DNA of 35,026 nt, taken from the NCBI GenBank assembly GCA_041745855.1, contig JBGTIE010000737.1, positions 1 to 35,026 on the forward strand, in the 5' to 3' direction. The notes under the pieces were generated by a model. That model saw only the letters and a list, made by a program, of their open reading frames with translations, was not told where the DNA came from and did not search any database. This document shows, piece after piece, positions 8,312 through 34,627 of this stretch (positions are counted from its first letter, which is position 1; each line of letters opens with the position of its first letter). The position numbers and the translations under genes were made by a program. This stretch comes from Lysobacterales bacterium. GTDB taxonomy: Bacteria; Pseudomonadota; Gammaproteobacteria; Xanthomonadales; SZUA-5.

Positions 8312-8315
8312 AGTT

Positions 8316-8722: not shown

Positions 8723-8738
8723 GAAGCGCCAGCCAGCT

Positions 8739-9352: not shown

Positions 9353-9538
9353 CAGACCCACCCACACACGCCCCCTGCGCTGCCCGACTCGCCCCGGCGA
9401 CAGCTTTCGTCGTCCTCGTCCGTAGCATTCACGCCAATTCGTTCTTCGTCCGAAAGCACTTCGGCCGGGAACAGTTTGCGCGATGCTCAGAATGAGCGGA
9501 CACGCAAACGTCCACTCTCACCAAAAAGGGGATGTCCG

Positions 9539-9892: not shown

Positions 9893-9956
9893 TTTAAGAA
9901 TTCCAGGATCGGCTGAATGACTTGCGCAGGCTTTCGCGAGCGCTGAAAACCGCAGC

Positions 9957-18300: not shown

Positions 18301-18696
18301 TCGATCGGCCAACTGGAAGCGTCGCCGACCTGAGTCCGCCCCGCCCAGATAGGCCGCCACCTCGCCGTCATCCAGTTCGGCCAGCAATTCGTAAATCCGC
18401 CAGCGCAGCGCCGGTCGACGGTAGGGAAGGATCGCGATTGCCGCACTCCCCAGCACTGACCGCGCCAGCATGTCCAGCCACTCGCTCGGAAGCAGCATGT
18501 CCAGATTCGCCGCCACCCGCGGCAGCGACGCCAGCCGCCGCTCAGCCAGCCACAGCGTCAGCCAGCGCTTCATCCCCAGATGTCCCACCAACACCGTCTG
18601 CCCGGCCAGCGCCGATCGAGGCCGCTGCCTGTGCAAACGCGCCGCCAGCATGTCAGCCAGCGATTCGATTCTGCTGCTGCGGTAGATATGGAGCAT
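15322..18696 (-). CDS. recC: Exodeoxyribonuclease V gamma subunit RecC
   Basis: 1124 aa with the typical N-terminus MLHIYRSSRIESLADML. First gene of the coupled recC-recB-recD operon. Confidence 0.93.
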   Translation of the reverse strand: MLHIYRSSRIESLADMLAARLHRQRPRSALAGQTVLVGHLGMKRWLTLWLAERRLASLPRVAANLDMLLPSEWLDMLARSVLGSAAIAILPYRRPALRWRIYELLAELDDGEVAAYLGGADSGRRRFQLADRLAGLYGQYLVYRRDWLSLWGLGEAAADPAMPVLGHWQGQLWRRILQGIGQGHRGQRMRRLLERLSTMPADPDQPALHVFGLSHLPPDVLTALQQLSVSRDVHVYFPDPCRELWEDLRVRRDQFATSLDGGAFLALKHPLLASLGRLGQHYSLLLNALDSASDDRDCVDAELQAEQAPSRLLQQLQDSIRTLQPSWSTAPPDAARADATLRIHLCHTRLRELEVLKDALLDQLTRQPDLQPRQIVVMAPNMAVYAPLIPAVFGQPGRSGEVLPFHLADVALSRSHPLLTAFAQLLELPTQRITRSQVLALLSLPAVMRRLKLDSSQLAAVERWLQRSHVAWGLDGPMKADFGAAEVGANSFDFGFDRMAAGFVLGREGGEWLLDGMLPADPVNGPDAQGLAALWALLDLLRDWREQTGTPRPLSEWSKCLRIWIEGLFLADWQDADEQAALTALERVVTGLGREADNAGVDPVVKWAVVHEALGQALDGVPERQPFLAGGITFCGMVPQRAIPFRVIALLGLNDGEYPRVRSDNQLDLMQQHPRLGDRVNRMEDRYLFLEALMSARDAIHLSWVGEGVQDGKPRNPALPLAELMRFLDQVHEIDESDPQIDRPWLLRHALQPFDARYFLPAGATADTYPRWFSYSMEFAAACRQSADQDWVFLQDAPRLPHASAAAAVELRSVCDFYAKPAQWLCLHALALSRETLSEDGDTDVEPLTSSRETLDQTPLLLLGQTIAAGRREIPAQPPAQLLYSGQLPAGALGERAYEALREEAQVLLDGVRSLPPFAQGAAEAAPVAIDLDIAGLRVIGELTEVYRSGDELWLVKVVNSKSVNYSKLLPLFLQWAALRISRPDCRCRVALMYLKTIKKELRCVRHDLDQFPDDPALLRASLSTLLEQYLTAETTAGSYFPATSFAYALELAEGKNDPLGKARKVWAPDFGTGERDYSPGYNRVLAANDSFLQAGTPAHRRFTELAALHMELLQGTAWSGSQS

Positions 18697-18880
18697 CCGT
18701 CAGTCCCCCTGCTGGACCGGCCACTGGTACGGACTGTAACAGTCGGCTTCGAGCCCTCCGATAGTCCGCTCAGAGACGACAGATTCTGTCGTAGCAATGG
18801 CGATACTCGGCGGGTCCAGCAGCATCGAGAGATCGCATGACCAGTTTTCAGTCGACCAATCGCCCCTTGTCTGCTATAGC
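18654..18880. repeat. Direct repeat DR-L: recC codons 1-14 plus about 185 nt of recC leader/upstream region
   Basis: 18654-18746 matches 23495-23587 at 89/93 by hand alignment. The rest aligns more loosely (about 70 %) with 23588-23720. Confidence 0.85.
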
Positions 18881-18947
18881 CCAGTCAGGAACTATTGCAG
18901 CAGCGCCGCAAGGCGCATCCGATCAGCGCATGCACAGGGGAGCATGA

Positions 18948-19790
18948 ATGACTGAAGCACTGCAGCGTCTGTGTCGGGACAATCATCTTGCGAAGGCCTT
19001 TCTGAGCCTGGCTAATGGTAGCGACGGCACCAGTCGCGCCAGCACATTCAACGATTTTCACCGCACGCTGAGCAGTGATGGCTACATGCTCGGTCACGAT
19101 GAATCCCTGGACTTGATGCGCGAGTTGGAATCGGCAGGCGCAGGCGTGCTCCACGATGCCGATCAGCCGCATTCGGCACGGATCGAGTGGAAGCCGGATC
19201 TGGCCACGGTCGCAGCGTTGGCCCTGGGAGTGCCGGCACGACAAGCACAAGTCACCTCGCATCCGAATGGGTACGATGCATCGCCGGCTCTTGCACCCCA
19301 GCCCACATCGCTGAACCCGGCGGGGCGGGAGTCAGGCAAGTTCAATCTGCCCTCAGGCGCGTCGATAGAGATCAGGCTTGCGGGAACCGTGCGCGCAGAC
19401 GATCGCGAAGCCTTCCTGGACGGTGTGTTGGGTTGGCTCGCTCAGCGCCTGCTCAGTTCCCCTGCCGAGGCCGAAGTCACGCTGGTCGACGAGCCGGATG
19501 ATGAAGACGTCGAATCACAGGCTGAAATCGATGACTCGGCTGCAAGGGTGGCAGATCAGCCATTCGAAGCGCTCACCGAGCCGCTAGAGCAGGAAGTCGA
19601 CAGCCTGGGCGAACTGGCGCATCTAGTCATCGCCCGCGCGCGGAAGCGGGGCCCACATTCTGCTTCTTTGCTCACCCCGTCGAATTCTCTCCGGGCAAGC
19701 AAAATGCTACTAAGCGAATTATTTCAACCAGTTACATGCGTTTCACGTGAGGCCAGCCAATTGGGAGGTTTCAATGGAAAGTCTCTTTAG
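18948..19790 (+). CDS. Hypothetical acidic protein (280 aa)
   Basis: Long ORF with a plausible codon pattern and a D/E-rich segment (VDEPDDEDVESQAEIDDS). It overlaps the helicase start by 17 nt. No motif recognised. Confidence 0.5.
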   Translation: MTEALQRLCRDNHLAKAFLSLANGSDGTSRASTFNDFHRTLSSDGYMLGHDESLDLMRELESAGAGVLHDADQPHSARIEWKPDLATVAALALGVPARQAQVTSHPNGYDASPALAPQPTSLNPAGRESGKFNLPSGASIEIRLAGTVRADDREAFLDGVLGWLAQRLLSSPAEAEVTLVDEPDDEDVESQAEIDDSAARVADQPFEALTEPLEQEVDSLGELAHLVIARARKRGPHSASLLTPSNSLRASKMLLSELFQPVTCVSREASQLGGFNGKSL

Positions 19791-22413
19791 CTATTTTCAG
19801 GAGAATGGCTGGTCCATTGTTCATCGGGAAGAGCGCGCAGGGAGAATTGGAGAAACCTTTCCTAGCGACGATCTTGGACTGAGCGACGGCGCACGAAAGC
19901 TCATTTACGCAAACGGCATCTACGGGCACCAACGGGAAGCAATTCGAGCTTTCTCGAGCGGGGAAAACGTTGCTATAACGACAGCGACAGCGTCGGGAAA
20001 GACGTTGGTTTTTAACGTGTGTGCAGCCGAACTGCTCCTGACTGGCAATCATACGATACTCGCACTTTATCCCCTGAAGGCACTTGGGAAGGAGCAAGCT
20101 CAACGCTGGAAGGCAATGCTCAAGAAGATAGGCCTTGAGAAATCTGTCGGCTACATTGACGGCAGTGTTGGCCAGCCCGAGCGACTTCGTATCTTAAAAG
20201 AATGCCGGGTATTGGTAGGCACGCCTGACATCTTGCATGCCTGGATACTCAGGCAGGGCGGGCAGGCGGATGTCGTTAGCTTCATCAGGAGGCTTAAGCT
20301 CCTGGTGATCGACGAAGCGCATTCATACACAAGCGTCTTTGGCAGTAATGCTGCCTATGTGTTCAGGCGTTTGGAGCATGCATGCCAGAATCTCGGTGGG
20401 AGTCTTCGTTATATCGCGGCTTCGGCGACGATGGACGCACCGCTCGCGCACTTGGAGAAGCTGACCGGGCGAACTTTCCGCGAAGTAGATGAGTCAACCA
20501 ATACGGCGCCGTTAGAACCCGTCAAGTTCATATGCGTCCGTCCCGGTGGAGGTGACGGTTTAACCGCGTTGGGAAATCTGCTTTCCTGTGCGTCGGAAAT
20601 TGAAGGTGCAAAAACGATTGCATTCGTTGATAGCCGCCAGTTAGCTGAACACGCAGCGGTCATAGCCGGACGCCGGAGCGACGCGCCGCCAGACGAGTTT
20701 GAACGCGACCTTGACGAAGCGCTTGATGAATTGAAGCTGCCCAAAGGCAAAGTGTTGCCGTATCGATCTGGTTACGCGGCGCAGGATCGAGAGGCCATTC
20801 AACGAGCGCTAACAAACGGGAAACTTCGAGCTGTCGTCAGTACAAGCGCGCTTGAACTAGGTATTGATATTCCTGGGTTGAATCTTTGCATACTCTACGG
20901 AATACCACCATCAGGAAGCAGCTTTCGACAGCGCTATGGGCGCGTGGGAAGAGACGCACCCGGTACCGTAGTCATTATTGACGATGGATCTCCTCGAGCA
21001 GTCGCGATATTTAAGGACCCAAGCATGATTTGGGCGCTGCCTCTTACCAAGAGCTCGCTCTATCTTCATAATCGACAGGCGCAGTATATCCACGCGATGT
21101 GTTTGGCCTCGCAAAATGGGGAAGACCAGGCCTTTGCCAAGGCGGGGTCTTCGTCGGCACGGCAATTTTCGCGCACGGGGCTTTTCCCTGACGATTTCAT
21201 TGCATTGTGTCAAGCTGAGCATCAGGGCTCAATACCTCAGGAGTTACAATATCTCCGAGATCTGAGTGGAGATAGTCCCAATCTCTCATTCCCGCTGCGA
21301 GACATTGGGCTTCAATTTAGGATTTTGAATCCGCAGCGGTTCGGGAGAGAGACGCTTGGCGATCTTTCGCACGCCCAGTTGATGCGTGAGGCCTACCCGG
21401 GCGCTATTTATTATCATATCGGAACCGCTTATCGTGTATTCCGAGTGTCACTGCGCGAGAGGGAGGTTCTCGTTCGCCGTGAAAAGCATTACTTCACTTC
21501 CGCAAAGAGGCTACCCAGCAAAATCTTCCCGGAATTCCGCAGCGACAAAGTCTTCTGTGATTTGACCCAAGGGACGATGAGGGTAGTTGAATGCGGATTG
21601 AATATTCGTGAGACTCTTGTTGGTTTTCGGGAGTTCCGCGGCGGGAACAGGTTCGATGTTGATTACCCGCTGGAACCCGCGCTCAGACTGTACTTTGATC
21701 AGAAGTACTTCTCTCGGAACTGGTCGACCTCCGGCGTCATTCTGACCCACCCGCAGCTCGCGATTGACGAAGTCGATCTCACCGTCGTCGCGAGCTTTGT
21801 GTTAGATGCGTTCTTGATGGAAATTCCGTTCGACCGTCAAGATGTTGGTGCAGGGGTAGACAAGATCCAGGTCGGCGAGCGTGGGCATCGTGAGGGCCAG
21901 TACTTTATATGCCTATACGATAAGCAGGCTACGCTGAGACTTTCCGGCGCAATTACGGAGAAAGGTGCCCTTAAGAAAGTTCTCGAGCGCGCACATGATT
22001 TGGCGAGTGGTATTGCCGGCATCGACGGAGGCCCGTCGGCAGCTGTCCTGAACGTACTGGAAGCGCTTGCGATGGAGTCGGCTGAGTTGCCTGTGACGAA
22101 TTCGGAGGCGGCGCTCTTGCCAACTTCAGATCGTTACGTTCCGGTTATTCGACCAGGCTCCATTGGGATCGATCCTACGCGCCAAGGCGAGGAGTTCCAC
22201 GTCACGAATGTCCTTTGGCACCCGATGTTTGGCCTCGCTTATCATGGCACTTATGTATCGGAGGAGCGTCGTGCAGTGGGTATAAATGGCAACGGACCTG
22301 CTCAAACCTTCGTGGCAGCTGAAAAGCTGCAGGGTATTCCTGGCTTGTCGTCAATGTCTTGGTATGACAAAGTAAAGGCGGCCGTGGTTAATGAAATCGA
22401 GGGTGAGTTTTAG
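19774..22413 (+). CDS. SF2 DEAH-box helicase, MrfA/YprA-like, with DUF1998-like C-terminal region lacking cysteines (879 aa)
   Basis: GGGAGG lies 5 nt upstream of ATG 19774. Motif I ATASGKT (19984-20004), motif II DEAH (20311-20322), motif VI QRYGRVGR. Post-helicase blocks AYPGAIYYHIGTAYRV...HYFTS and DRQDVGAG...QYFICLYDK follow. Confidence 0.85.
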   Translation: MESLFSYFQENGWSIVHREERAGRIGETFPSDDLGLSDGARKLIYANGIYGHQREAIRAFSSGENVAITTATASGKTLVFNVCAAELLLTGNHTILALYPLKALGKEQAQRWKAMLKKIGLEKSVGYIDGSVGQPERLRILKECRVLVGTPDILHAWILRQGGQADVVSFIRRLKLLVIDEAHSYTSVFGSNAAYVFRRLEHACQNLGGSLRYIAASATMDAPLAHLEKLTGRTFREVDESTNTAPLEPVKFICVRPGGGDGLTALGNLLSCASEIEGAKTIAFVDSRQLAEHAAVIAGRRSDAPPDEFERDLDEALDELKLPKGKVLPYRSGYAAQDREAIQRALTNGKLRAVVSTSALELGIDIPGLNLCILYGIPPSGSSFRQRYGRVGRDAPGTVVIIDDGSPRAVAIFKDPSMIWALPLTKSSLYLHNRQAQYIHAMCLASQNGEDQAFAKAGSSSARQFSRTGLFPDDFIALCQAEHQGSIPQELQYLRDLSGDSPNLSFPLRDIGLQFRILNPQRFGRETLGDLSHAQLMREAYPGAIYYHIGTAYRVFRVSLREREVLVRREKHYFTSAKRLPSKIFPEFRSDKVFCDLTQGTMRVVECGLNIRETLVGFREFRGGNRFDVDYPLEPALRLYFDQKYFSRNWSTSGVILTHPQLAIDEVDLTVVASFVLDAFLMEIPFDRQDVGAGVDKIQVGERGHREGQYFICLYDKQATLRLSGAITEKGALKKVLERAHDLASGIAGIDGGPSAAVLNVLEALAMESAELPVTNSEAALLPTSDRYVPVIRPGSIGIDPTRQGEEFHVTNVLWHPMFGLAYHGTYVSEERRAVGINGNGPAQTFVAAEKLQGIPGLSSMSWYDKVKAAVVNEIEGEF

Positions 22414-22415
22414 CC

Positions 22416-23432
22416 ATGACAGAAAAGCAGGTTGTTGTCCGCAGGCTGGACTTGCCGGGAGCTATAGCTTGCCTGAAGGAAGCGCAAATAGTCGCGGAGC
22501 ATGCCAGTGTGATCGTTGTTGATTTTGGGGGATGCGAGTGGGCGGAGCCACTGGGCATGCTGGTTTTCGGCGCGTCGCTACGAGACCTTCGTGCAGAAAC
22601 TAAGAAAATAAGACCCGAAGTTAAGTTTCGTGCAATCGGATATGAGGGGCGCGGCTATCTCGCACACATGGGTTTGTTCAAGCTCTTCGGGCTCAATTAC
22701 GGCAAAGCACCCGATGAAGCGGAGGGCGGTTCGCGCTATGAACCAATCCGGTTCATTGATCTTGCCGAGCTTGAGCGAAATGCGGCCGAGCAATATCAGG
22801 ATACGCACGAATATATTGAGAAAACCTGTCAAGGGATGGCCAGCTTGCTTGTTCAAGGTGGCTCTGAGATTCTGTCTGAAACTCTGGGGTACTGCTTGCG
22901 AGAGATTGTCAGGAATGTCTTGGAGCATGCCCAGGTAAGTGGCTTGTGGTATTGCGGGCAATATTGGCCTCAGAAAGACAAGGTAGAGCTGGGTCTTTTC
23001 GATCTTGGGATGGGTGTTCGACGTGCATTGTCGCGCAACCCGCACATTGCGGTCGAATCCGACCAAGACGCGATTCGATTGGCAATCAAGCCAGGAATTT
23101 CCGGAGTGGTTTTTCAGGGTGCGCGGCAAATGCGCAATGATGGATGGCAGAATTCTGGCTTTGGCTTATATATGACGAGTCAGATCGCGGCGCAGTATGG
23201 GCAGTTTCGTTTGGGGAGCGGCGATTCGCTGATGACGTTTGACGCCAAAGGGCAGGAATTTCAGGAATTCAGGTTGAAAGGAACGGCGGTGTCGATAAGC
23301 CTCCGTCCAAGCAAGGTCACCAAGCTGGCCGAGCGGCTTTCGGAGCTTCGGAAGGCTGCGAAGTCGGGTAGTTCGGGTGATGACGGGACGACCGTTCGCT
23401 CGGCGTCGGCCTATGGTCGGGGAAAGACGTAA
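22416..23432 (+). CDS. GHKL-type (histidine-kinase-like) ATPase with STAS-like N-terminal region (338 aa)
   Basis: N-box EIVRNVLEH, G1 box DLGMG and G2 box NSGFGLY. N-terminal segment VIVVDFGGCEWAEPLGMLVFGASL. The start is 2 nt after the helicase stop. Confidence 0.75.
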   Translation: MTEKQVVVRRLDLPGAIACLKEAQIVAEHASVIVVDFGGCEWAEPLGMLVFGASLRDLRAETKKIRPEVKFRAIGYEGRGYLAHMGLFKLFGLNYGKAPDEAEGGSRYEPIRFIDLAELERNAAEQYQDTHEYIEKTCQGMASLLVQGGSEILSETLGYCLREIVRNVLEHAQVSGLWYCGQYWPQKDKVELGLFDLGMGVRRALSRNPHIAVESDQDAIRLAIKPGISGVVFQGARQMRNDGWQNSGFGLYMTSQIAAQYGQFRLGSGDSLMTFDAKGQEFQEFRLKGTAVSISLRPSKVTKLAERLSELRKAAKSGSSGDDGTTVRSASAYGRGKT

Positions 23433-23494
23433 ATGCCCTGTGCCTGCATGAGGGCGGTGATCGGCTTCGCCTCGGTTCCAGCGCGTGGTAAGGC

Positions 23495-23720
23495 CAGCCA
23501 GCGATTCGATTCTGCTGCTGCGGTAGATATGGAGCATCGGTGAGTCCCCCTGCTGGAACTGCCACTGGTACGGACTGTAACAGTCGGGGTCGAGACGGCC
23601 GATTGTCGGGGGCGAGGCGACAGATTTGGTCGCCGCAGTATCGATACTTCGGCCAGTTGTAGATTTCACAGCGCGCGGGGGAGATTTTGGTCGACCGATT
23701 GGCCGTGGTCTGATATAGAG
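23495..23720. repeat. Direct repeat DR-R: orphan copy of recC codons 1-14 (23496-23537, minus strand) plus leader/upstream region
   Basis: The minus strand encodes MLHIYRSSRIESLA, then diverges from recC. See DR-L. Confidence 0.85.
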
Positions 23721-23782
23721 AAGACTGCGCTTTGATGTCCTAGGCTGCCACCGCGCCAAAGACCAACAATGTAGGGATTCCC

Positions 23783-26700
23783 ATGCCAGCTGAAACTAAA
23801 GGTCGCGACCTCTTCATCGTAGACAACAGCGTGTCAGGCTGGACCTGCCTTCGCTATCTGGAGGAATGGGCTGGCATTGCGAAGAGCTTTGACATTGCAA
23901 CTGGCTACTTCGAGATCGGTGCGTTGCTCGCCCTCGATGGTAAGTGGCAGCAATTGGAGAAGATCAGGATCCTGATGGGCGCGGAAACAATGCAATTTTC
24001 TCGGAAAGCATTGCTTGAAGCTGTGCGGTCCCGCGCAGCAGAAGTATTGGATCGCAGCATTGAGTGCGACAAGACGGCAAACCCCTTCCTGAACAACGTG
24101 CCGGCAATTTTGGAGGCACTCCGCTCACGCCAGATCGAGTGCCGTGTCTACGACAAGGACAAGTTCCATGCAAAGGTATACATCACTCATGCCAAGTTGG
24201 AGGTTGTCGGGTCGCAGGCTCTCGTCGGATCCAGTAACTTCACCCCTCCTGGACTTACCCAAAACATCGAACTGAATATACAGGTGCAGAGTGCGCGCGA
24301 GGTGGCACAGCTGCAGGAATGGTTCGAGGTGCACTGGAACGACGCTAGCGACATCACTGACACTGTCATCGAGACGATCGATCGTCACACGCGCCCTTAC
24401 AAACCATTCGAGGTGTACGCGAAGGCGCTACAGGAGTTCTTCCGCGGTCATGAATTGACAGCAAGCGAGTGGGACGAGACTCGCTCGAAGATGTTTCCGC
24501 ATATCGACCGCTATCAGAAGGAAGCCTACTGGGCGCTGATGAAGATTGCGCGCCAGCACGGTGGCGCGTTCCTCTGCGACGGCGTCGGGCTCGGCAAGAC
24601 CTTCGTCGGCCTGATGCTGATCGAACGCCTGGTGCTGCACGAAGGAAAGCGCGTCGTGCTTTTTGCACCAAAGGCAGCGAAGGAGGGAGTGTGGGAGCCG
24701 CATTTGCGTGACTGGTTACCACACATCGGCGGTGTAGGTGGCGGCGCTGACTTTAGCAACCTGGCTGTCTTCAGCCACACGGACCTCGGCCGCAAAGGCG
24801 ACTTTCCCGAGCGTTTTCGAAGGATTGCGGAGTTGGCGGACGTCGTTGTGATCGATGAAGCACACCACTTTCGCAATCCGGGTCGCCCACGTAGGGAAGA
24901 CGACGACGTTGAGCCATCCCGCTACCATCGTCTTTATGACCTGCTCGACAGCACGGCACGGCCAAAGACACTCTTCATGCTCACTGCAACGCCAATCAAC
25001 AACCGACTGAGCGACTTCCGGCATATGGCAGAGCTGTTCACGCGCCGGGACCAGACGTATTTCGCGCGAACGCTGGGCGTCAACAATCTGACTGCGCACT
25101 TCAACCAAGTGGAAAAGGCGCTCCGAAGCCAGGTCGGCCATGACGTGAGCGATGTCGCCGAACACATCACCGAAGCTCAGGAGATTCTGGCGAGCGATGA
25201 GGTCTTCCGTCATCTGGTAGTCCAGCGTAGTCGCGCCTATGCACGAGAAAGCCAGATCCGCGAGACAGGCAAGGCGGCCGCCTTTCCGGATCGAAGATCT
25301 CCCCAGGTGGCCGGTTATTCAATACGGAAGAGTTACGGACGTCTGCTCGACATGTTCGAGAACGCTTTCCAAGGGAAGAATCCGCTTTTTGCATTGCCGA
25401 TGTACTACCCGTTGGCTTGGTACAAGGGGCCAGATACCAGTATTGACCCGCTGGAGCAGGGTCGGCAGAAGCAGGTTGTTGGTCTCATTCGAACCAACTT
25501 TCTCAAGCGCTTCGAAAGCTCGGTCGTGGCGTTCGAGCTTTCCTGCGACCGACTGCTACAGAAGCTCATGGCGTTTCTGGAGGTACATAGTAAGACAGTA
25601 ACCGAGAAGAAGAAGCTGGAGCGCTGGAAAACGGACAATGCCGAGGCGCTCGGCTACGCGCGTCAGAGGCAGCTGGAGCTTTGGGGTGATAGCCGCGACG
25701 AGTCCGAAGACGAAGACATTGTGCCTCAGGAAATGCTTGATGCCGTCGAGCGTCTTGACCGCAATGAGTACGATTTGTCAGCCATGATGGCAGAAACGTT
25801 TCGGGACCTCGACCAGCTAACTCACTTTGTAAGTGAAGCGAAGAAGTTCCAGCCAAAGCACGACGACAAGCTGCAGAAGCTCATCCGCCTACTCAAAACC
25901 AAGGATCTCGCCGGCCAAAAAGTGTTGATCTTCACCGAGTTCGCCGACACAGCGCGCTACCTGAAGCGCGAACTGGACCGGGCCGGCATCGACGGCGTTG
26001 CCCAGGTGGACAGCGCAACCAAGGCCAACCGAGCCGATGTCATTCAGCGCTTCGCGCCTTACTACAACAGCACTTCCTCGAAGGCGCTAGCGAAGAAGGG
26101 GGACCCTGAGACCCAGATACTCATCTCGACCGATGTTCTCTCGGAAGGCCTGAACCTTCAGGATGCTTCCCGGATGATCAACTACGACATCCACTGGAAC
26201 CCGGTCCGCCTGATGCAGCGCATCGGCCGCGTGGACCGGCGCATGAATCCGGAAGTCGAGAAACGATTTATCGCCGATCACCCCGAAGTCGCCTCGTCGC
26301 GCGGGAAAGTGAGCTTCTGGAACTTTCTGCCGCCCGACGAGTTGAATGCAATTCTTACTCTCTACACAAAAGTTACCCAGAAGACTCTGCTGATTTCCAA
26401 GACCCTCGGCATCGAGGGTAAGAAGCTGCTCACACCTGACGACGACTTCGACGCTCTCAGGGAGTTCAACCACGCCTATGAAGGCACAAAGACCGCCGTT
26501 GAGGACATGCATCTTGAGTTTCAGTCGCTGCTGCAGGCTGACCCGGAGCTGGAGTCCCGCCTGCGACGGCTGCCAGGCGCCACTTTTAGCGGTCGCAAGT
26601 GTCCTGCGAAGGGTGCGCGAGGAGTGTTCTTCTGCTACGCGCTCCCGGCGCTCGACAAGGAAGCCGGCGAATTCACACAAGAGGCCGGTACCACCCGCTG

Positions 26701-26932: not shown

Positions 26933-26936
26933 GACC

Positions 26937-29900
26937 ATGTCAACCAACCACCGCGCCGCATTGGCGGACATCAAGACATTCCCCCAGCTCATCGCCTACC
27001 TGCGCGACGAGATGGGCTGGCCGATTGCCCGCGACTCGTTCGAGGACGTGGACGATCTGTTCTACGACTTCACTGCCGACGAGCTCGGTATCGACCCGAA
27101 AACCGCCGCCAAGATCACCGAGATCAAGCGCCTCCGGCCACTCTCGCCCTGCCAGCCCTGGGGCATTTTCTTCGTCAAGTTCGAGCCGAAGAAGCTCCCG
27201 GTGGTGGCGCTGCGCCGCATCCTGAGCCAGGTGGCGCTCAAGAAGCGCGCCTCCGCCAACAGCGCCGACCACACTGCCTGGGCTGCCGACGACCTGCTCT
27301 TCGTCTCCAACTACGGTGAGGGCAGCGAGAGACAAATCAGCTTCGCGCATTTTGCGAAGCCGCAGGACGGCCACGACCTCCCCACCCTCAAGGTGCTCGG
27401 CTGGGACAACCGCGACACAGCATTGCATCTCGACGCCGTTGCGAAGGAGCTGACGCAGCATCTGGCCTGGCCCGACGACGACGCCGATGTCGAGGCCTGG
27501 CGCAAAGGCTGGCGCGGCGCCTTCACCCTGCGCCACGGCGAAGTCGTCACCACATCGAAGGAACTCTCGATCCGCCTGGCCAGGCTGGCGGGTGACATCC
27601 GCGACCGCATCAAGTCCGCGCTCGCCATCGAAACCGACCGCGGCCCGCTCACCAAACTGATGAGGACGTTCCAGACGTCGCTGGTTCACGATCTCGACAC
27701 CGACGGCTTCTCCGACATGTACGCGCAGACCATTGCCTATGGTCTGCTCTCGGCGCGCATTGCCGACCCGCACAAGAAGACCGTCGACGACTTCGCCGGC
27801 CACATGCGCACCAACCCGTTCCTGCGCGAGCTGATGGAGACCTTCCTCAAGGTCGGCGGGCGGCGCGGCAAGGCGGGCGGGCCGGGCATCGACTTCGACG
27901 AGCTGGGCGTGAGCGAAGTCGTGCAGTTGCTCGACGACGCCAACATGGAAGCTGTCGTCCTCGACTTCGGTGACAAGAACCCGCAGGAAGACCCGGTCAT
28001 CCACTTCTACGAGTTGTTCCTCAAGGAGTACGACGCCAAGAAGCGGATGCAGCGCGGCGTCTTCTACACCCCACGCCCGGTGGTCTCCTACATCGTGCGC
28101 TCGGTGGACGAGCTGCTGCGCACCGAGTTCGGCCTCGACGACGGTCTCGCCGACACGACCACCTGGGGCGAGATGGCCAAGCGCCACAAGGATCTGAAGA
28201 TTCCCAAGGGCGTCTCACCTGACCAGCCCTTCGTGCAGATCCTCGATCCCGCTACTGGCACCGGAACCTTCCTGGTCGAGGTCATCGACATTATCCACAA
28301 GACGATGGTCGCTAGGTGGAAGGCGCAAGGCCACCGCCAGAAGAAGGTCGCGTCGCTGTGGAACGAGTACGTGCCCGAGGCCCTATTGAAGCGCTTGCAT
28401 GCCTACGAACTGTTGATGGCGCCCTACGCCATCGCGCATTTGAAGGTCGGGCTCAAGCTCTACGAGACCGGGTACCGCTTCGGCAGCGATGAACGGGCGC
28501 GCATCTACCTCACGAATGCGTTGGAGCCGGCGCACGACTTCTCGGGGACCTTTGAGTTCGCGATTCCGGCGCTCGCGCATGAGGCGCGTGCAGTCAACGC
28601 AATCAAGAGCCACCAACGTTTCACCGTCGTGATCGGCAACCCACCGTATGCGGGCGTATCGTCAAATACGGGCGAATGGGTCACTCGTCTGATAAAGGAT
28701 TACTACTTTGTAAATGGGGAGCCATTGGGTGAACGCAATCCGAAATGGCTGCAGGATGACTATGTCAAATTTATCCGGTTTGGCCAATGGCAGTTGACTA
28801 ACAGCGGGATTGGTCTGTTCAGTTTCATTACGAACCACAGCTACATCGACAACCCGACGTTCCGAGGATTCCGTCGGAATTTTGCAACGCAGTTTTCAAA
28901 TGTTGCCGTTCTCGATCTTCATGGAAATTCAAAGAAAAAAGAGTCGTCTCCAGACGGAACGACCGATGAAAACGTGTTCGATATCCAGCAAGGGGTGGCC
29001 ATCTTTTCCGCTTGGAAATCGCAAGGGACGAGCCGGAACATTTTGCACGGCGACTTGTTTGGGACACGCCAAACGAAATACGCTCGATTGCTCGGAAACT
29101 CTTATGCTTCGACTAAATGGACAGCGGTAGCGAGTTCCGAACCATATTACCTGTTTGTGCCACAATCAGAAGACTTGCGTGCTGAATACGAAGCAAGTAT
29201 GCGCATCACTGACCTTACTCTAACGAATGGCTGGGGCGTCGCGACGAGGAAGGATTACCTGCTGGTGGATTTCGATGGCGACGATCTGCGATCTCGGTTC
29301 AACAAGATATTGGGCGGCACGGCAAATGAGGCCTATGCGCTCGGCCTGAAAGACAATCCGCACTGGAAGTTCTCTTCGGTCAAAGACCGGCTGGGGAAGA
29401 CTGTAGGAAAACGAGTCGTGAAGTATGCCTACCGCCCCTTCGACACCCGCTGGGTCTTTTACGAGCCGCTAATGATTGAAAGAGGAGACCATCGTTGGTC
29501 CATTGCACGGCACCTCTTCAACCTTGAGGACAATCTAAGCCTGCTCGTCAGTCGAACCGGCGCCGCCGCCGGTTCTCCTATGTGGGATGTTCTTTTCGTG
29601 GCCAACGGGATTAGTGATCTAAACCTTTTTCGGCGCGGGGGGGCGTTCATGTTTCCCCTTTATCTTGTGCCTGGCGACGATGAATTAGCATTCAGTTCAA
29701 CCAAGGCGCTGAATCTATCTGTTCAGTTTCTCAATGCGCTTTGTTCGCAGCTTAAATTGAAACCGAGCACGACAGGCCTGCCTGACGGCCTGACGCCCGA
29801 AGACATCTTCCACTACGCCTACGCGGTGTTTCACAGTCCCGGCTACCGGAGCCGCTACGCGGAGTTTCTGAAGATTGATTTCCCGCGCCTTCCATTGACA

Positions 29901-30956
29901 GGGAACCTGGAGCTTTTCCGATCGCTGGCCCGGCTAGGCGGCGAACTCACTGCCCTGCACCTGCTGGAGTCGCCAAAGCTCGCCCAGCCCATCACCGAGT
30001 TCATCGGCGGCCGCCATCCCGAAGTCGAAAAAACCTCGTGGTCGCGCAACACCGTGTGGGTGGACAAGGCGCAGTCGACCGGCTTCCAGGGCGTGCGCGA
30101 GGACGTGTGGAACTTTCACATCGGCGGTTACCAGGTCTGCGAGAAGTGGCTCAAGGACCGCAAGGGACGCACGCTCAGTAAGGACGACATCGCCCACTAC
30201 CAGAAGATCGTCGTCGCGCTCAACGAGACCATCCGCCTGATGAAGGAGATAGACGAAGTTATTGAGAAGCATGGCGGCTGGCCCGGCGCATTTTCGTCAT
30301 CCTCGGGTCCTGCCCTGACGAGAAGGGTTGAGACGCCGTTGTCAACTGTCGAGACTATGAAGCTGCCTGTCGGCGCGCCACCTCAGCAACAGCTGTATGT
30401 GATCCCTGATGTCCCGTTCAGGAGGGCCGCGGAGCCCGCTCGACCCGAGTACGACGCTGAGCCAGCCAACACATCGTCTCAAGGGCTGGCGAACAGGGAC
30501 CGGCTGCTGGACAAGGATCAACTTGTTTGTCGAGTTCGGCATTGTTTCATGGGGGGCAAGGAGCGCGACCGAGAAGAAGCCATCCTCGAACTCGCTCGGG
30601 CATCGGGATACCAACGGACTGGGTCTCGAGTCCGCGAAGCCATGGACGACGCGATTCGAACGTCAGTGCGAAGGGGGATCCTGGAGAACGTTGGAGGCAA
30701 GCTGCGGATCTGCGCCAAGTCCATCGATCAATACGAGCGCGAGTTCCTCAAGACCCAGTTCCTCGCATCCTTGGAGGGAACGAACTGGACTGAGCGGGAG
30801 GACGCCATCCGGGCATTTGCCCGTTGGCTGGGGTTCCTGCGGACCGGCTCGACGATCGACGAGACGGCTCGTTCACTCATCAACGGCTTGATTCGGGAGT
30901 CGAGGCTTGAAAGCGAGGGAACGAGGGTGCGGATCGGCGGCATGATTCACGAATGA
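26937..30956 (+). CDS. N6-adenine DNA methyltransferase (Eco57I/type-IIG/ISP-like) with type-ISP-like C-terminal specificity region and a repeat-containing tail (1339 aa)
   Basis: GVFYTPRPVV (28062-28085), motif I ILDPATGTGTF (28239-28271) and motif IV NPPY (28638-28649). HIGGYQVCEKWLKDRKGRTLSKDDIAHYQKIVVALNETIRLMKEIDEVI (30117-30263) resembles the type ISP C-terminal domain. The start is 4 nt after the SNF2 stop. Confidence 0.88.
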   Translation: MSTNHRAALADIKTFPQLIAYLRDEMGWPIARDSFEDVDDLFYDFTADELGIDPKTAAKITEIKRLRPLSPCQPWGIFFVKFEPKKLPVVALRRILSQVALKKRASANSADHTAWAADDLLFVSNYGEGSERQISFAHFAKPQDGHDLPTLKVLGWDNRDTALHLDAVAKELTQHLAWPDDDADVEAWRKGWRGAFTLRHGEVVTTSKELSIRLARLAGDIRDRIKSALAIETDRGPLTKLMRTFQTSLVHDLDTDGFSDMYAQTIAYGLLSARIADPHKKTVDDFAGHMRTNPFLRELMETFLKVGGRRGKAGGPGIDFDELGVSEVVQLLDDANMEAVVLDFGDKNPQEDPVIHFYELFLKEYDAKKRMQRGVFYTPRPVVSYIVRSVDELLRTEFGLDDGLADTTTWGEMAKRHKDLKIPKGVSPDQPFVQILDPATGTGTFLVEVIDIIHKTMVARWKAQGHRQKKVASLWNEYVPEALLKRLHAYELLMAPYAIAHLKVGLKLYETGYRFGSDERARIYLTNALEPAHDFSGTFEFAIPALAHEARAVNAIKSHQRFTVVIGNPPYAGVSSNTGEWVTRLIKDYYFVNGEPLGERNPKWLQDDYVKFIRFGQWQLTNSGIGLFSFITNHSYIDNPTFRGFRRNFATQFSNVAVLDLHGNSKKKESSPDGTTDENVFDIQQGVAIFSAWKSQGTSRNILHGDLFGTRQTKYARLLGNSYASTKWTAVASSEPYYLFVPQSEDLRAEYEASMRITDLTLTNGWGVATRKDYLLVDFDGDDLRSRFNKILGGTANEAYALGLKDNPHWKFSSVKDRLGKTVGKRVVKYAYRPFDTRWVFYEPLMIERGDHRWSIARHLFNLEDNLSLLVSRTGAAAGSPMWDVLFVANGISDLNLFRRGGAFMFPLYLVPGDDELAFSSTKALNLSVQFLNALCSQLKLKPSTTGLPDGLTPEDIFHYAYAVFHSPGYRSRYAEFLKIDFPRLPLTGNLELFRSLARLGGELTALHLLESPKLAQPITEFIGGRHPEVEKTSWSRNTVWVDKAQSTGFQGVREDVWNFHIGGYQVCEKWLKDRKGRTLSKDDIAHYQKIVVALNETIRLMKEIDEVIEKHGGWPGAFSSSSGPALTRRVETPLSTVETMKLPVGAPPQQQLYVIPDVPFRRAAEPARPEYDAEPANTSSQGLANRDRLLDKDQLVCRVRHCFMGGKERDREEAILELARASGYQRTGSRVREAMDDAIRTSVRRGILENVGGKLRICAKSIDQYEREFLKTQFLASLEGTNWTEREDAIRAFARWLGFLRTGSTIDETARSLINGLIRESRLESEGTRVRIGGMIHE

Positions 30957-31004
30957 ACATGCTACTTAGTCCAACCAGATTGGCAAGACGAGGGAGAGTG
31001 GAGG

Positions 31005-33614
31005 ATGGTCACGAAATTTCTTCAAGGTGAAGAGTTTACTCTGTCATTGCGCGAACTGTATCAAAAAGGCGGCAAGTATCAAAAAGCCGCACAAACAGTC
31101 CAAAGCATTTGGGGCCGCGCCAAGCTTGATGGTGCAACTGTCGAAGAGACCTTTAAAGGAGTTCCGACAACAAACCATGGCGAGAACCGAATTTCGCACT
31201 GTGTGAAGTTCGACTTGACCGGCTTTGCGCGCCTTGTCGTCGTTCACAACAGGAACGTCTGCCTCTTTCTCTTTACCGGTGATCATAATGCGGTTGATAA
31301 TTGGCTGGAACGGAACAAGGGGCTCGACTATGTTGCGCGGCATCATGGCGATTCACTTGTGCTCGACAAGATTCGAGTATCAGACCTATCGCAAGGGAAA
31401 AATGGCCACATCACAAGCGAATCCGACTTGAGTACCGGGGCGCTGTTCGAACTCTTGCCAGAGCGATGCCAAGATCGAATTCTGCATGATTTTGGTGAAG
31501 ATGAGCGCGCTGAAGTATTGAAAATCGAATCAATCGCAGATGATGATTTGATTCTCGCTGTCTCCACTCAATGTGGCACTCAGGAGCAGCAAGGCGCGCT
31601 GATGGATGTACTTTTGTCACTCCGCAATGGGGATGTCACGAATGCGAAAAACCGCATTGATCTTTACAGTCAAGTAGCGACGCCGGTGGAGGATCTTCCG
31701 AAATCCGATATTGAATCCTTGCAGTCGAGTGATGCGGCTGTACTACTTGCGGACGTCGACCCCGAATTGTTCCAGCACTTTGTAGAAACTGCGACGTTTG
31801 AGAAGTGGATGTTGTACTTGCATCCGGCTCAGCGGGAACACGTAGTTAAAGAATTCTCTGGCCCAGCACGCATGGCTGGGGTGAGTGGATCTGGAAAGAC
31901 CTCTGTAGTCGTTCACCGGGCGCTTAGGCTGGCCGATAAGTATTCGCCAGAACCCGTCCTTGTTGTGACCCTTAGCGCGGCACTTGCGTCACTTATCAAT
32001 CAGTTGATTGATGCACAGCGCGGCAATACTCGGCCTGGGAACCTGAAGGTTACATCAATCTTCGACTTGTGCTTTGATAAGCTGATGCAGATCGAGCCGC
32101 AACGGCGAGATTACTACACAAAGAGAAGTATTGCGAAGAACCCACATGCAATATCAGATCATATCGACGAAGTCTGGCATGAGTTCTTTATGTGTGAGAA
32201 CAATAATCATGATGCGGACGTGCTGCTTGACGTAATACAGTCACTCAATGTGCGTGGTATCTACGCCAATGACTATCTCAGACAGGAACTTGACTACATT
32301 CGAAGCTCTCGTTCCCCTGCTGACAGATCAGGTTATTTGCAGATGGAGCGTCTTGGTCGCATCGTGCCGCTCGATGAGAAACTCAGACAGCAGATCCTGG
32401 ATGGGTTGTCAGGCTGGGAACGCAAGATGAATGCGGTGGGCGTCATTGACGACATGGGTATAGTGTCGTCGTTATACCATCATCTCGATTCCGTTGAGCC
32501 GGAGTACAGAGCAATATTGGTCGATGAGGCGCAAGACCTTGGTACGCTTGAGCTGGCTATCATCAGGCGATTGGTTCGTGAAGGTGAGAACGATATCTTT
32601 CTTTGCGGTGATACGGCGCAGACAATCTATACGAAGTCGGCAGATTATAAGGCTGCGCGCATTGAAACGGCAGGTAGATCGGTCAGGCTTCTCCAAAACT
32701 ATCGGAATAGCCGTCAAATATTAACCGCCGCATATGAAGTCCTCACCCGCGCTCTTGAATCGATGCCAAAGGGGGCAATGAACCTGGATGTGCTTGTTCC
32801 GGACTACGCTAGCTTCTCCTCTCCAAAACCTCTTCTGCTGCGTGCGGCCTCATTCTCTGAAGAGCTAGAGTACGGATTGGGATTCTTGAGATCTTGTGTC
32901 GAAGATAGCCCAATAAACCAGCGCTACTGTCTGGCTATATGTGGTTATACGCATGCGGCCGTTGAGCAGATCGGTGTTCAACTTTCCTTGCCGATACTCG
33001 CTGCAAACACAGATGTCCGTACTGCCCGGATATTCATTTCTGATCTCGAACAGACGAAGGGGTTTGAATTTGACTCTGTCGTCGTAATCAACTGTTCAGC
33101 TCGGGTTCTCCCACATCCATATCTGCCTAGTGAGGAATCGTTCCGGGATCTTTGCCGCCTGTATGTTGCGATGACACGGGCAAAAACGCAGCTTGTTGTT
33201 TCGTACACAGAGACGCCATCACGGTTTATTGCGGCTGCGCGGGAGTTCTTTATTGAGGCAACGTTTGAAGAATATGCCGAGCCCGTGAAAGTGATAGATT
33301 CCGATCTGCCCACGCAGGCAATCCCGGCGCTCCTGAATCATCATGCATGGGGCCTGTCAGGAAAGAAATTCATCAAGTACAGGGATGCAGTAGGGCTCGA
33401 CAGGACCGTTCAAGAAGAGATTCTCAACCATGTTACGGGTGTAGAGAAAGTCCGTGGTCGCGAGAAGAAACAACTGGAGTGGAAGACATTCGGGGCTTTT
33501 GCCAAGGCAATGGAACAACCGAGGAGTCGGCACCAGATTCTCAGTGATGAGGCATGGTCGAGCCTTTCACGGCATCTGGCGGTTCTGCGACAAGGGCAGG
33601 TTCAGGCTCAATGA
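31005..33614 (+). CDS. SF1 (UvrD/Rep-like) helicase with about 270-aa uncharacterised N-terminal region (869 aa)
   Basis: Walker A GVSGSGKT (31878-31901), ILVDEAQDLG, CGDTAQTIY, LQNYRNSRQIL, KGFEFDSVVV and LYVAMTRAKTQLVVSY. RBS GGAGAGTGGAGG precedes the ATG. About 42-47 % GC. Confidence 0.88.
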   Translation: MVTKFLQGEEFTLSLRELYQKGGKYQKAAQTVQSIWGRAKLDGATVEETFKGVPTTNHGENRISHCVKFDLTGFARLVVVHNRNVCLFLFTGDHNAVDNWLERNKGLDYVARHHGDSLVLDKIRVSDLSQGKNGHITSESDLSTGALFELLPERCQDRILHDFGEDERAEVLKIESIADDDLILAVSTQCGTQEQQGALMDVLLSLRNGDVTNAKNRIDLYSQVATPVEDLPKSDIESLQSSDAAVLLADVDPELFQHFVETATFEKWMLYLHPAQREHVVKEFSGPARMAGVSGSGKTSVVVHRALRLADKYSPEPVLVVTLSAALASLINQLIDAQRGNTRPGNLKVTSIFDLCFDKLMQIEPQRRDYYTKRSIAKNPHAISDHIDEVWHEFFMCENNNHDADVLLDVIQSLNVRGIYANDYLRQELDYIRSSRSPADRSGYLQMERLGRIVPLDEKLRQQILDGLSGWERKMNAVGVIDDMGIVSSLYHHLDSVEPEYRAILVDEAQDLGTLELAIIRRLVREGENDIFLCGDTAQTIYTKSADYKAARIETAGRSVRLLQNYRNSRQILTAAYEVLTRALESMPKGAMNLDVLVPDYASFSSPKPLLLRAASFSEELEYGLGFLRSCVEDSPINQRYCLAICGYTHAAVEQIGVQLSLPILAANTDVRTARIFISDLEQTKGFEFDSVVVINCSARVLPHPYLPSEESFRDLCRLYVAMTRAKTQLVVSYTETPSRFIAAAREFFIEATFEEYAEPVKVIDSDLPTQAIPALLNHHAWGLSGKKFIKYRDAVGLDRTVQEEILNHVTGVEKVRGREKKQLEWKTFGAFAKAMEQPRSRHQILSDEAWSSLSRHLAVLRQGQVQAQ

Positions 33615-33624
33615 GATTTGATCA

Positions 33625-33840
33625 ATGAGTCAATGGACTGATGTGATTCTTGGCCAATTCGTAGCTGATCTGACACGGCAATGGGTAGGGTGCGACCCCG
33701 ACGATGTGCTGCTCGACGAGAAGCTATTGTCGGAGCTGCGTAGCCGGGGCTTCGAGGTGATGCTTTACGAAGACCCGTTCACGTGCCGCATGAAGCCCAG
33801 CATCGCGCTCCAATGCGCTACTTCATTTATGTCGGTGTAG
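33625..33840 (+). pseudogene. 71-codon ORF, probably the 5' remnant of a larger gene (N-terminus recalls PglZ-type proteins; tentative)
   Basis: It starts 10 nt after the helicase stop. MSQWTDVILGQFVADLTRQWVGCDPDDVLLDEKLLSELRSRGFEVMLYEDPFTCR... then ends abruptly just before convergent genes. Confidence 0.35.
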
Positions 33841-33884
33841 ATGATGGTCATGCTCCAACCTGTGTCCTTTGGGTTGTGCTGGCT

Positions 33885-34169
33885 TTAGTCGACTTCAAAA
33901 TTGAAGTTGACGAAGGTGTAACCAGACTCTGATTGCTTGACAGTGATGTCTGTGTCACCTTTGGTCCAGGGTGATGCCCGGACCTCCCTGATGAGGTCCT
34001 CTTCGTCTATTCCGGCGATGTCCTCGTTGGAGAAAATGAGGCTTTCGGCGGTGATTCCGTCCCAGACCCATTTTTGGTAGAGAACGTCATAGGGACCGAG
34101 TCTCGTTTCGAGCTGGAGGATGATCCTTGTGTCATCGTCCACCGGCACGTTGTCGAACTTGCCTGTCAT
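33885..34169 (-). CDS. Hypothetical small acidic protein (94 aa), translationally coupled to the upstream nucleotidase gene
   Basis: ATG 34169 overlaps the TGA of the upstream gene (ATGA at 34166-34169). The longer listed ORF (to 34415) lies inside the nucleotidase gene in another frame. Confidence 0.55.
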   Translation of the reverse strand: MTGKFDNVPVDDDTRIILQLETRLGPYDVLYQKWVWDGITAESLIFSNEDIAGIDEEDLIREVRASPWTKGDTDITVKQSESGYTFVNFNFEVD

Positions 34170-34627
34170 GTCTCTGCTCTGGATCGGGTCATCAGGTAGT
34201 CGTGCACCGTGGTCCAGTCCGGAAACCGAGGTGTGCCGAAGTGCAGATGTTCGCCCTGGAACGTGTCTGCGCCGTTCTTCAAGCGATCGTCGACCAGGAA
34301 GTGGCCGTAGTTCAGGTTCTTGTGGTGAGACAGAATCAGTCGCTTGTGAGCATGATCGCCTAGATGGCGCCTGACCCAGAGCAGCTTGTCTGACCATGCG
34401 GACGGGTTTTCCCATGGGGAGGTGGAAAGAACGTAGGTATTAAAAGCGCCTGCCAATTGCTTGAATGCATCAATGGCTCCCGCCATGGGATCCATCAGGG
34501 AAAAAATGCCTGGAACTTCATCAAGGCGGTCCTCGTACTCGTCAAACGTCGCCTTCGGGATTCTGGGGAATGCTGATGCAAAATCCACCAGCACATTGTC
34601 CATGTCTATGTAGAGTATTCGCTTCAT
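34166..34627 (-). CDS. HAD-superfamily 5'(3')-deoxyribonucleotidase (NT5C-like), 153 aa
   Basis: Motif I YIDMDNVLVDF (DxDxV), motif II VLSTSP, and the Lys/Asp motifs KLLWV...FLVDDRLKNG. The size is typical for this family. Confidence 0.75.
   Translation of the reverse strand: MKRILYIDMDNVLVDFASAFPRIPKATFDEYEDRLDEVPGIFSLMDPMAGAIDAFKQLAGAFNTYVLSTSPWENPSAWSDKLLWVRRHLGDHAHKRLILSHHKNLNYGHFLVDDRLKNGADTFQGEHLHFGTPRFPDWTTVHDYLMTRSRAET

Follow-up and report, generated by a model that had tools for sequence, protein, structure and literature searches.

A probable composite defence island of separately acquired modules upstream of recC in a Lysobacterales bacterium

The contig JBGTIE010000737.1 of a Lysobacterales bacterium (GenBank assembly GCA_041745855.1) was analysed over its entire length of 35,026 bp, which we refer to as the window. 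Upstream of recC it carries a block of genes which is probably a composite defence island, made up of three independently mobile modules that were acquired separately: a helicase with a STAS-GHKL protein (module A), a PLD-SNF2 protein with a methyltransferase (module B), and a lone gene for another helicase (module C). We favour stacked independent modules over a DISARM system. The initial annotation of this DNA had recognized here the full domain set of DISARM class 1 in a rearranged and fused form, and had proposed either a compact non-canonical DISARM relative or two independent systems stacked at one site. As a phenomenon such an island is ordinary. Its domain content, its catalytic motifs, the linkage patterns of its genes and the remnant at one of its junctions can be read directly, and they are set out below. 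The genes of the three modules are:

P2 (module A): 19774–22413, plus strand; 879 aa from the ATG; superfamily 2 (SF2) helicase of the YprA/MrfA family
P3 (module A): 22416–23432, plus strand; 338 aa; fusion of a STAS-like N-terminal domain with a SpoIIAB-like ATPase/kinase domain of the GHKL type
P4 (module B): 23783–26932, plus strand; 1049 aa; N-terminal single-HKD PLD nuclease domain and SNF2/SF2 translocase
P5 (module B): 26937–30956, plus strand; 1339 aa; gamma-class N6-adenine methyltransferase with a Type ISP-type target recognition domain (TRD)
P6 (module C): 31005–33614, plus strand; 869 aa; RelE/ParE-like N-terminal topology, helical linker and UvrD/GajB-like superfamily 1 (SF1) helicase

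All long open reading frames (ORFs) between 18948 and 33840, which the ORF scan resolves into seven genes (P1–P7), lie on the plus strand, and the block differs in composition from recBCD (GC 0.50–0.60 versus 0.63–0.65); both points are as first described. The GC content at third codon positions (GC3) is 0.77 in recC and 0.52–0.75 in the island genes, and it follows the modules, being 0.56–0.58 in A (P2/P3), 0.71–0.75 in B (P4/P5) and 0.52 in C (P6). The junction between modules A and B carries a further mark, which involves the 5' end of recC:

recC (RecBCD gamma subunit): 15322–18696, minus strand; TIGR01450, 731 bits versus a cut-off of 583, with recB and recD directly downstream
Direct-repeat copy 1: 18654–18807; recC codons 1–14 (18654–18696) and the recC upstream leader
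Direct-repeat copy 2: 23495–23648; truncated recC' (codons 1–14 only, 23495–23537) and a diverged recC leader

The recC gene is a conserved flank and lies outside the island. The recC-leader repeat seen at the outset is real: the two 154-nt copies have 85% identity, including an exact block of 44 nt (18654–18697 in copy 1), and weaker similarity, with an indel, runs on from copy 1 to ~18885. All other repeats of the region are of 34 nt or less. Read on the minus strand, both copies begin with an ATG and encode MLHIYRSSRIESLA, that is, recC codons 1–14, followed by the recC leader. Copy 2 is therefore a truncated recC' with its leader, situated between P3 and P4, and it marks the junction of modules A and B. 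The stacking is evident from this remnant taken together with the module-specific GC3. On the simplest reading P4–P6 would once have adjoined recC directly and P1–P3 would have come later, bringing with them a diverged recC 5' end and leader, for example through Campbell-type recombination of a fragment donated by a relative with module A upstream of its own recC; this insertion would have restored an intact recC and left the old 5' end behind. We infer both the order of arrival and the Campbell-type scenario from the repeat, and separate origins of the modules agree with their GC3. A minus-strand ORF of 197 aa (23166–23759), which leads in frame across leader copy 2 and the recC' start codon before continuing antisense to the 3' end of P3, is probably an artefact of high GC, but an active duplicate of the recC promoter would cause its transcription.

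The halves of the block were then followed through genomic stretches around their homologues (loci L001 and so on), of which ~110 were informative, ~27 around close P4 homologues and 83 around members of the P3 family. Within 10 kb of P4 in the close loci with enough flank (~27) there is no relative of P1, P2, P3, P6 or recC, save in L031, where a distant helicase-core match to P2 (30%) lies 4 kb upstream of P4. The 83 P3-family loci contain no relative of P5 or P6, and no P4-type neighbour beyond weak helicase-motif matches in L132 and L160. Modules A and B occur together in 0 of the ~110 related loci; among these the two halves do not keep company. As to two independent systems stacked at one site, the independence is upheld by this lack of co-occurrence, by the remnant and by GC3, and the number has to be raised, since there are at least three modules.

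The DISARM reading fails, the proteins lying outside the Drm families. With the NCBIfam model DISARM_DrmAL, whose cut-off is 999, P2 obtains 24.1 bits, and it matches the PADLOC DrmA models [~1e-11] in its Helicase_C domain only. P4 reaches 129.8 bits with DrmD (cut-off 610), and this over aa 559–826 only, and 23.7 bits with DISARM_DrmC_I (cut-off 133). P5 gives 15.7 bits with PADLOC DrmMI [6e-4], to be compared with its match to the Type IIG model REase_MTase_IIG [2.5e-200]. A DUF1998-like region had been claimed for P2. The C-terminal 357 aa of P2 match no Pfam family even at E≤10, and therefore not PF09369 (DUF1998), the family of DrmB, either; P2 has no CxxC motif, and its likeness to MrfA stops at ~aa 576. 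The PF09369 search has power, because the same family does match ArmC of the ARMADA systems and a YprA-family helicase from locus L147, both of which are described below. Nor is there a separate DrmC-type PLD protein, the sole PLD domain being fused within P4. Of the supposed full class 1 domain set there remain the generic domain types (SF2 helicase, PLD, SNF2 and N6-adenine methyltransferase), in which the block does resemble DISARM class 1; DUF1998 and membership of the Drm families have to be given up, and the fusion of PLD to SNF2 and the separate mobility of the halves are further differences. We have rejected a compact non-canonical DISARM relative, as all Drm scores are far below the curated cut-offs and the halves never co-occur in the ~110 loci.

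One might still suppose that all six genes form a single rearranged system of the DISARM or ARMADA kind, with P2 standing for DrmA+B or ArmC, the PLD domain of P4 for DrmC and its SNF2 part for DrmD or ArmA, P5 for DrmMI or ArmB, and P6 for ArmD. ARMADA is a DISARM-related class described in a 2025 preprint (Bell et al., PMC12458937). Its type II comprises ArmA (SNF2-like), ArmB (methyltransferase), ArmC (a large YprA-like helicase) and ArmD (RelE-like plus GajB-like helicase); ArmC, which is situated between ArmB and ArmD, has a BrxA-like insert, Zn modules, an MZB (MrfA Zn-binding) domain and a C-terminal Vsr nuclease (PMC12458937). As the type II reference we used the locus of E. coli ATCC 8739 (NC_010468.1, 4239557–4269380) in direct BLASTP comparisons. 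This locus is an ARMADA II–Druantia III–Zorya II array at a tRNA-Phe site, matching the preprint (PMC12458937), and in RefSeq its ArmA–D carry only generic helicase or methyltransferase names.

Several features speak for such a single system. The generic domain types fit DISARM class 1, the succession of YprA-like helicase, SNF2-like helicase and methyltransferase is similar to that of ARMADA type I, type II has a RelE-like/UvrD protein as its hallmark, and P6 aligns with ArmD [8e-33], with a pair of SNF2-like helicase and Eco57I-type methyltransferase upstream of it as in type II. However, P5 has no BLASTP match to ArmB at E<0.1, P4 matches ArmA over 132 aa (30%, helicase motifs only), and the alignment of P2 with ArmC or DruE is limited to helicase motifs; hhalign detects no signal between the C-terminus of the P2 family and either ArmC or DruE. 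ArmA lacks a PLD domain, no ArmC-like gene lies between P5 and P6, and P2, which is small (879 aa) and MrfA-like, is without the MZB domain of ArmC. Since the Drm scores are 4- to 40-fold under the curated cut-offs, the halves are never together among the informative loci, a recC' remnant lies between them and their GC3 is unequal, we consider a single system very unlikely and return to stacked independent modules.

In module B the two ORFs are 4 nt apart. Within P4 Pfam identifies PLDc_2 (PF13091, aa 34–185), RE_NgoFVII (PF09565), ResIII, SNF2-rel_dom and Helicase_C, and the motifs H129xK, GSSN, GLGKT (269) and DEAH (358) are intact, which bears out the fusion of PLD to SNF2 that had been claimed. 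The PADLOC models "HKD+Snf2" [C3a139, 7.6e-60] and PLD_Helicase [1e-23] match P4, and SauUSI (7clg) matches its N-terminal part. P4 is also matched by NF042964 ("phospholipase D-like domain-containing anti-phage protein") [4.5e-42], with 144 bits versus a cut-off of 1100; we take this to be an MtsD-type model. P4 is the predicted restriction (motor-nuclease) subunit. Its relatives number in the thousands, the best 120 of them being 82–88% identical, ~1049 aa in length and from very different phyla, and searches with two peptide patterns gave at least 596 confirmed matches in GTDB species genomes.

P5 possesses intact DPATGTG (437) and NPPY (568) motifs and matches Type_ISP_C (PF18135) [4.6e-76], Eco57I and N6_Mtase, in agreement with the N6-adenine methyltransferase of the initial annotation. 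It resembles LlaBIII [1.9e-29, aa 351–1034], DrdV and LlaGI, and is composed of a subfamily-specific N-terminal region of ~350 aa, the methyltransferase, the TRD (aa ~700–1100) and a C-terminal extension (1105–1339). P4 is followed, after a few bases, by a P5 homologue in all close loci with enough downstream DNA (~27), and these loci come from Acidobacteriota, Chloroflexota, Actinomycetota, Planctomycetota-related metagenome-assembled genomes and Proteobacteria. Across 20 homologues the identity is 0.56–0.78 in the N-terminal and methyltransferase parts of P5, 0.15–0.29 in the TRD (aa 700–950) and 0.4–0.57 at the end of the Type_ISP_C domain. A motor-nuclease that hardly varies, together with a TRD that is hypervariable, is what characterizes Type I and Type ISP restriction-modification (R-M). 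Stand-alone plasmid methyltransferases of the P5 type lack the first ~200 aa of P5, and this N-terminal part may therefore serve to dock P4. NCBI names the relatives of P4 "helicase-related protein" and those of P5 "type ISP restriction/modification enzyme."

Among the close P4 loci no third gene is generally conserved with P4–P5. In four loci (L016 17226–21065, L017, L025 and L032 16488–20342) an SF1 helicase (AAA_30/UvrD_C_2) of ~1280 aa, of a type that spans ~1100–1285 aa, directly follows the P5 homologue, and it may be an optional third component. The C-terminal extension of P5 (30250–30956), which most homologues lack but those of L016 and L030 have, is internally duplicated over ~48 aa (aa ~1210–1258 and ~1285–1333, BLOSUM62 score 80) and has weak matches to DUF3320 and PADLOC PDC-S37.

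Module B probably functions as a split, PLD-armed, two-subunit R-M system that is ATP-dependent and Type ISP-like. P5 would bind a short asymmetric site via its hypervariable TRD and methylate an adenine, marking self DNA, and on unmodified DNA it would recruit or license P4, whose SNF2-type motor would translocate along the DNA. The single-HKD domain of P4 must, as in BfiI, SauUSI and MtsD, pair with a second copy for one active site, and cleavage would therefore probably follow dimerisation or the collision of two motors. The likeness to the Type ISP enzymes LlaGI and LlaBIII lies in the gamma-class N6-adenine methyltransferase followed by a C-terminal TRD, in the SF2 translocase and nuclease that belong to the system, and in a highly conserved motor and methyltransferase with a divergent TRD; the TRD is also the main difference between LlaGI and LlaBIII. 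Type ISP enzymes combine nuclease, translocase, methyltransferase and TRD in one polypeptide, translocate in an ATP-dependent manner and require unmodified head-to-head sites for cleavage. They have an N-terminal Mrr-like PD-(D/E)xK nuclease (PMC3874165), whereas P4–P5 are two polypeptides with a nuclease of the PLD/HKD and not of the Mrr type and an SNF2-like motor, and P5 has the extra ~350-aa N-terminal region and the 235-aa C-terminal extension. With MtsD of MANTIS (Gao_RL; MtsABCD, BR type 2) and with SauUSI P4 shares its PLD plus SF2 ATPase architecture, and, as in MANTIS, it has a site-specific adenine methyltransferase as its partner, by which the nuclease would be targeted. Pfam finds neither MtsA (DUF499 AAA+) nor MtsB (DUF3870) among the island proteins, and SauUSI differs in that it belongs to the methylation-dependent Type IV enzymes and has a TRD of its own. 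None of the named systems of the PADLOC v2 and NCBIfam libraries corresponds to the P4–P5 pair at family level, and a limited literature search found no paper describing it. BREX-related DUF499 systems were rejected, no DUF499 being present, as was the DnmA-YeeB-YeeC cluster, since other partners are described for it (YeeB, with a C-terminal SF2 helicase as the only domain noted; YeeC, T5orf172).

In module A, P2 is a DEAD/DEAH helicase by Pfam, with Walker A GKT (aa 75) and DEAH (aa 180) intact, as had been recognized. TIGR03817 [4.6e-68] covers aa 58–593, and the closest entry in the PDB is YprA (6znp) [8e-45 by phmmer over aa 47–576; 8e-67 by profile]. The similarity to MrfA (6znp) ends at ~aa 576, and the profile search reaches the MrfA OB region weakly. 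The C-terminal ~300 aa are specific to the P2 family, unrelated in sequence to MrfA and without its Cys4 zinc cluster; P2 further differs from MrfA/YprA in that its gene is located in a defence island and has a GHKL gene as its linked neighbour.

P3 has no Pfam match. That it is a GHKL ATPase, as claimed from the start, follows from its family-conserved N box (EIVRNVLEH, 163), G1 (DLGMG, 196) and G2 (GFGL, 248) motifs and from its AlphaFold (AF2) model, which has a pLDDT (predicted local distance difference test) score of 88.9. With this model Foldseek matched the C-terminal half to SpoIIAB (TMt 0.70–0.72), Topo VI-B [2.5e-4] and GyrB, and the N-terminal half to the STAS proteins RsfB/RsbS. 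P3 also matches phrog_3364 [3.8e-27], and a PADLOC long-DrmA model matches its aa 70–229. Its family comprises 698 clusters at E≤1e-30, nearly all of them stand-alone proteins of ~340 aa.

Full-length P2 homologues with 41–55% identity are found directly upstream of the closest P3 homologues in five loci (L001, L094, L097, L099 and L109), none of these pairs having P5, P6 or a P4-type gene as neighbour. Four of the five adjoin BREX (L001, L099), a Type I hsdR gene (L094) or a HerA-type gene (L109). The recurrent neighbours of the P3 family as a whole are an upstream helicase (7/83 loci) and Type I HsdR (4/83), and no others; neighbour clustering over the 83 loci reveals no conserved small partner, and no CapS, VapS or VapC occurs in the window. 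L147 presents a 1630-aa YprA-family helicase with an MZB domain (961–5850), followed 60 nt later by a P3-family gene (5910–6809), and this is a second kind of helicase-GHKL pair. The association of a helicase with a STAS-GHKL protein is recurrent, because the L147 pair and the long-DrmA match in P3 add to the P2–P3 pairs. Outside such pairs the P3 homologues are mostly solitary. One of them (L003, 10001–11008) is a lone, moron-like gene on the opposite strand within a siphovirus-like prophage of Desulfotomaculum arcticum, where it sits in the structural (portal-to-tail) module, which is consistent with the match to phrog_3364.

The closest parallel in architecture comes from CapK (HTH-STAS-GHKL, HTH being a helix-turn-helix domain) and VapK (STAS-GHKL), kinases activated by single-stranded DNA (ssDNA) which control immune operons or the VapC toxin (Chambers et al. 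2026, PMC13373217). P3 shares with VapK, which is CapK minus the HTH, the combination of STAS and SpoIIAB-like GHKL domains, compared by architecture and not by sequence, and like CapK and VapK it occurs in defence islands beside R-M-like systems. It differs from both in having no adjacent CapS/VapS STAS partner or VapC, its only recurrent partner being the YprA-family helicase. In the likeliest mode P2 would engage or produce ssDNA, foreign or damaged, and P3 would then act as an ATP-dependent switch or kinase on some target. We put this mechanism forward with low confidence, and because P3 lacks a STAS substrate partner the mode of action of module A is offered as a hypothesis.

For module C, Pfam identifies UvrD-helicase and UvrD_C in P6, and the motifs GSGKT and DEAQD are intact; the SF1 helicase named in the initial annotation is thus UvrD-like. 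The PADLOC models that match are NERD+UvrD and those of GajB [up to 4e-22], yet there is no GajA-like gene (OLD-family nuclease), and Gabija was therefore rejected. The alignment with E. coli ArmD extends over 532 aa with 25% identity. In the AF2 model (pLDDT 84.8) the N-terminal ~105 aa have the order beta-alpha-alpha-beta-beta-beta-alpha, in agreement with a RelE/ParE fold, and a Foldseek search with the full model returned UvrD, PcrA and Rep, solely UvrD-type proteins among the 50 matches listed. Comparison of the N-terminus with that of ArmD by hhalign gave the expected register below significance [E=0.17], and 15 P6-type N-termini gave a single match to ParE_like in Pfam, likewise not significant [E=0.09]. 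P6 probably works as a self-contained sensor-effector, though the mechanism of module C, in which it would act in this way, is put forward only tentatively.

Close homologues of P6 (46–78% identity) are common. One stands alone in a variable region (L009), another lies three genes from a P4–P5 pair (L010), and those of Burkholderia (L005–L008) directly follow a large SF1 helicase (L005 6608–9910). This Burkholderia helicase is homologous (26–28% identity) [1e-65 to 1e-87] to the helicase found after P5 in four loci, which may point to accessory SF1 helicases that form a loose network around pairs of the R-M type.

Other roles can be imagined for the modules. P2–P3 might be an accessory or regulatory module that senses ssDNA or damage in the manner of CapK and serves an adjacent methylation-based restriction system, here P4–P5 and elsewhere BREX or Type I R-M. 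In L094 hsdR and in L001 brxHI precede the pair by 31–77 nt, and in L099 the pair adjoins a BREX locus with brxL/pglZ; both P2 and P3 are without an effector domain, and in 88 of 443 cases capK-capS comes directly after an R-M system (PMC13373217). On the other hand only five loci are resolved, a small sample that the usual clustering of genes in defence islands could account for. The L109 pair adjoins a HerA-type gene instead, P3-family genes are mostly solitary with one lying among prophage structural genes, and P3 lacks both an HTH and a CapS-like partner; we hold this role to be unlikely. Equally unlikely, in our view, is the combined proposal that P2–P3 is an undescribed ssDNA-reading defence or accessory module and that the site upstream of recC is a self-renewing defence hotspot. 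In it the ssDNA could come from P4–P5, BREX, Type I systems or RecBCD processing phage DNA, and the recC 5' end with its leader would be the recombination target, the duplication rebuilding recC with each added module.

That the island consists in part of inactive relics, P5 for instance being in function an orphan methyltransferase like the one suggested for B. subtilis DnmA-YeeB-YeeC, seems less likely again. The DnmA (YeeA) cluster methylates without detectable restriction, stand-alone "type ISP restriction/modification enzyme" genes are found on plasmids, and P1 and P7 are orphans. Against this the large ORFs are all intact with every checked catalytic motif present, P4 is very strongly conserved across phyla, and the hypervariable TRD implies ongoing selection on specificity.

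The reading of the block as stacked independent modules has its own weak points. We infer from sequence and models all the biochemical activities, the subunit interactions and any anti-phage phenotype, and by analogy the physical interaction of P4 with P5 and the mode of cleavage. Neither a nuclease nor any other effector domain can be recognised in module A, and the likeness of P3 to VapK and CapK is one of architecture only; moreover, the conserved Phe of the "EPFG" motif, which we would guess to be the ssDNA-binding F54 of VapK, is Leu in P3 and its closest relatives. The RelE-like label of the P6 N-terminus is derived from the order of predicted secondary-structure elements. The modules may also cooperate, as P2–P3 stands beside BREX (L001, L099) and HsdR (L094) elsewhere, and shared SF1 helicases appear by homology to link the four P5 loci with the P6 relatives of L005–L008.

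The position next to recC had been singled out because RecBCD is both an anti-phage nuclease and a common target of phage inhibitors. The functional link with RecBCD that this suggests finds no support, recC being a neighbour in 0 of the 80 P4 loci and in 1 of the 83 P3 loci. As the modules are otherwise not linked to recC, the association is positional and not functional. Single-protein 8-mer patterns from RecC found no true relative among the GTDB species genomes. Support for a hotspot consists of the internal scar in the window and of one anecdote, L095 (1–10559), in which a P3 homologue and a pair of AAA ATPase and WYL/WCX genes occupy a low-GC stretch (0.41–0.51) immediately upstream of an unrelated recC. 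The same AAA ATPase plus WYL/WCX pair lies near the P3 homologue of L001 (15950–19188), a locus unrelated to L095.

The remaining features of the island and its flanks are:

P1: 18948–19790, plus strand; 280-aa orphan ORF, overlapping the start of P2 by 17 nt
P7: 33625–33840, plus strand; 71-aa ORF directly after P6, without family assignment
recD: 9957–11714, minus strand; TIGR01447, curated cut-off passed
recB: 11711–15325, minus strand; TIGR00609, curated cut-off passed
NT5C-type 5'(3')-deoxyribonucleotidase: 34166–34627, minus strand; PF06941 [2.4e-13], GC 0.54, GC3 0.65

P1, with an intermediate GC3 of 0.62, gave zero Pfam, PADLOC, NCBIfam or PHROG matches and no tblastn match across the 163 related loci (80 P4 and 83 P3-family). 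It is not a conserved partner of P2–P3, and its coding status is uncertain. P7 is otherwise found solely on one near-identical short metagenome contig. Past the NT5C gene the contig ends (34760–35022) in a cluster of palindromic repeats resembling repetitive extragenic palindromes, with the core GCGGTGGC(TT/AA)GCCACCGC and inverted arms of 27–34 nt that are 97–100% complementary. Scans of the window for promoters and terminators gave nothing above shuffled expectation, and it contains zero tRNA genes and zero Rfam matches. At its other end (1–9900) the long plus-strand ORFs that were searched are without any NCBIfam match; long overlapping minus-strand ORFs and a negative GC skew suggest that the real genes of this part are encoded on the minus strand.

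The correct parsing of this 15-kb island makes it clear that matching domain types are insufficient for a DISARM call. The recC' remnant and its leader are a concrete molecular scar that records the stacking of modules beside recBCD. The widespread and apparently unnamed pair of PLD-SNF2 protein and Type ISP-like methyltransferase would represent a minimal two-subunit extension of the Type ISP and MANTIS families, and the recurrent combination of YprA-family helicases and STAS-GHKL proteins may form a bridge between defence by helicases and the signalling through ssDNA-activated kinases that was described in 2026.

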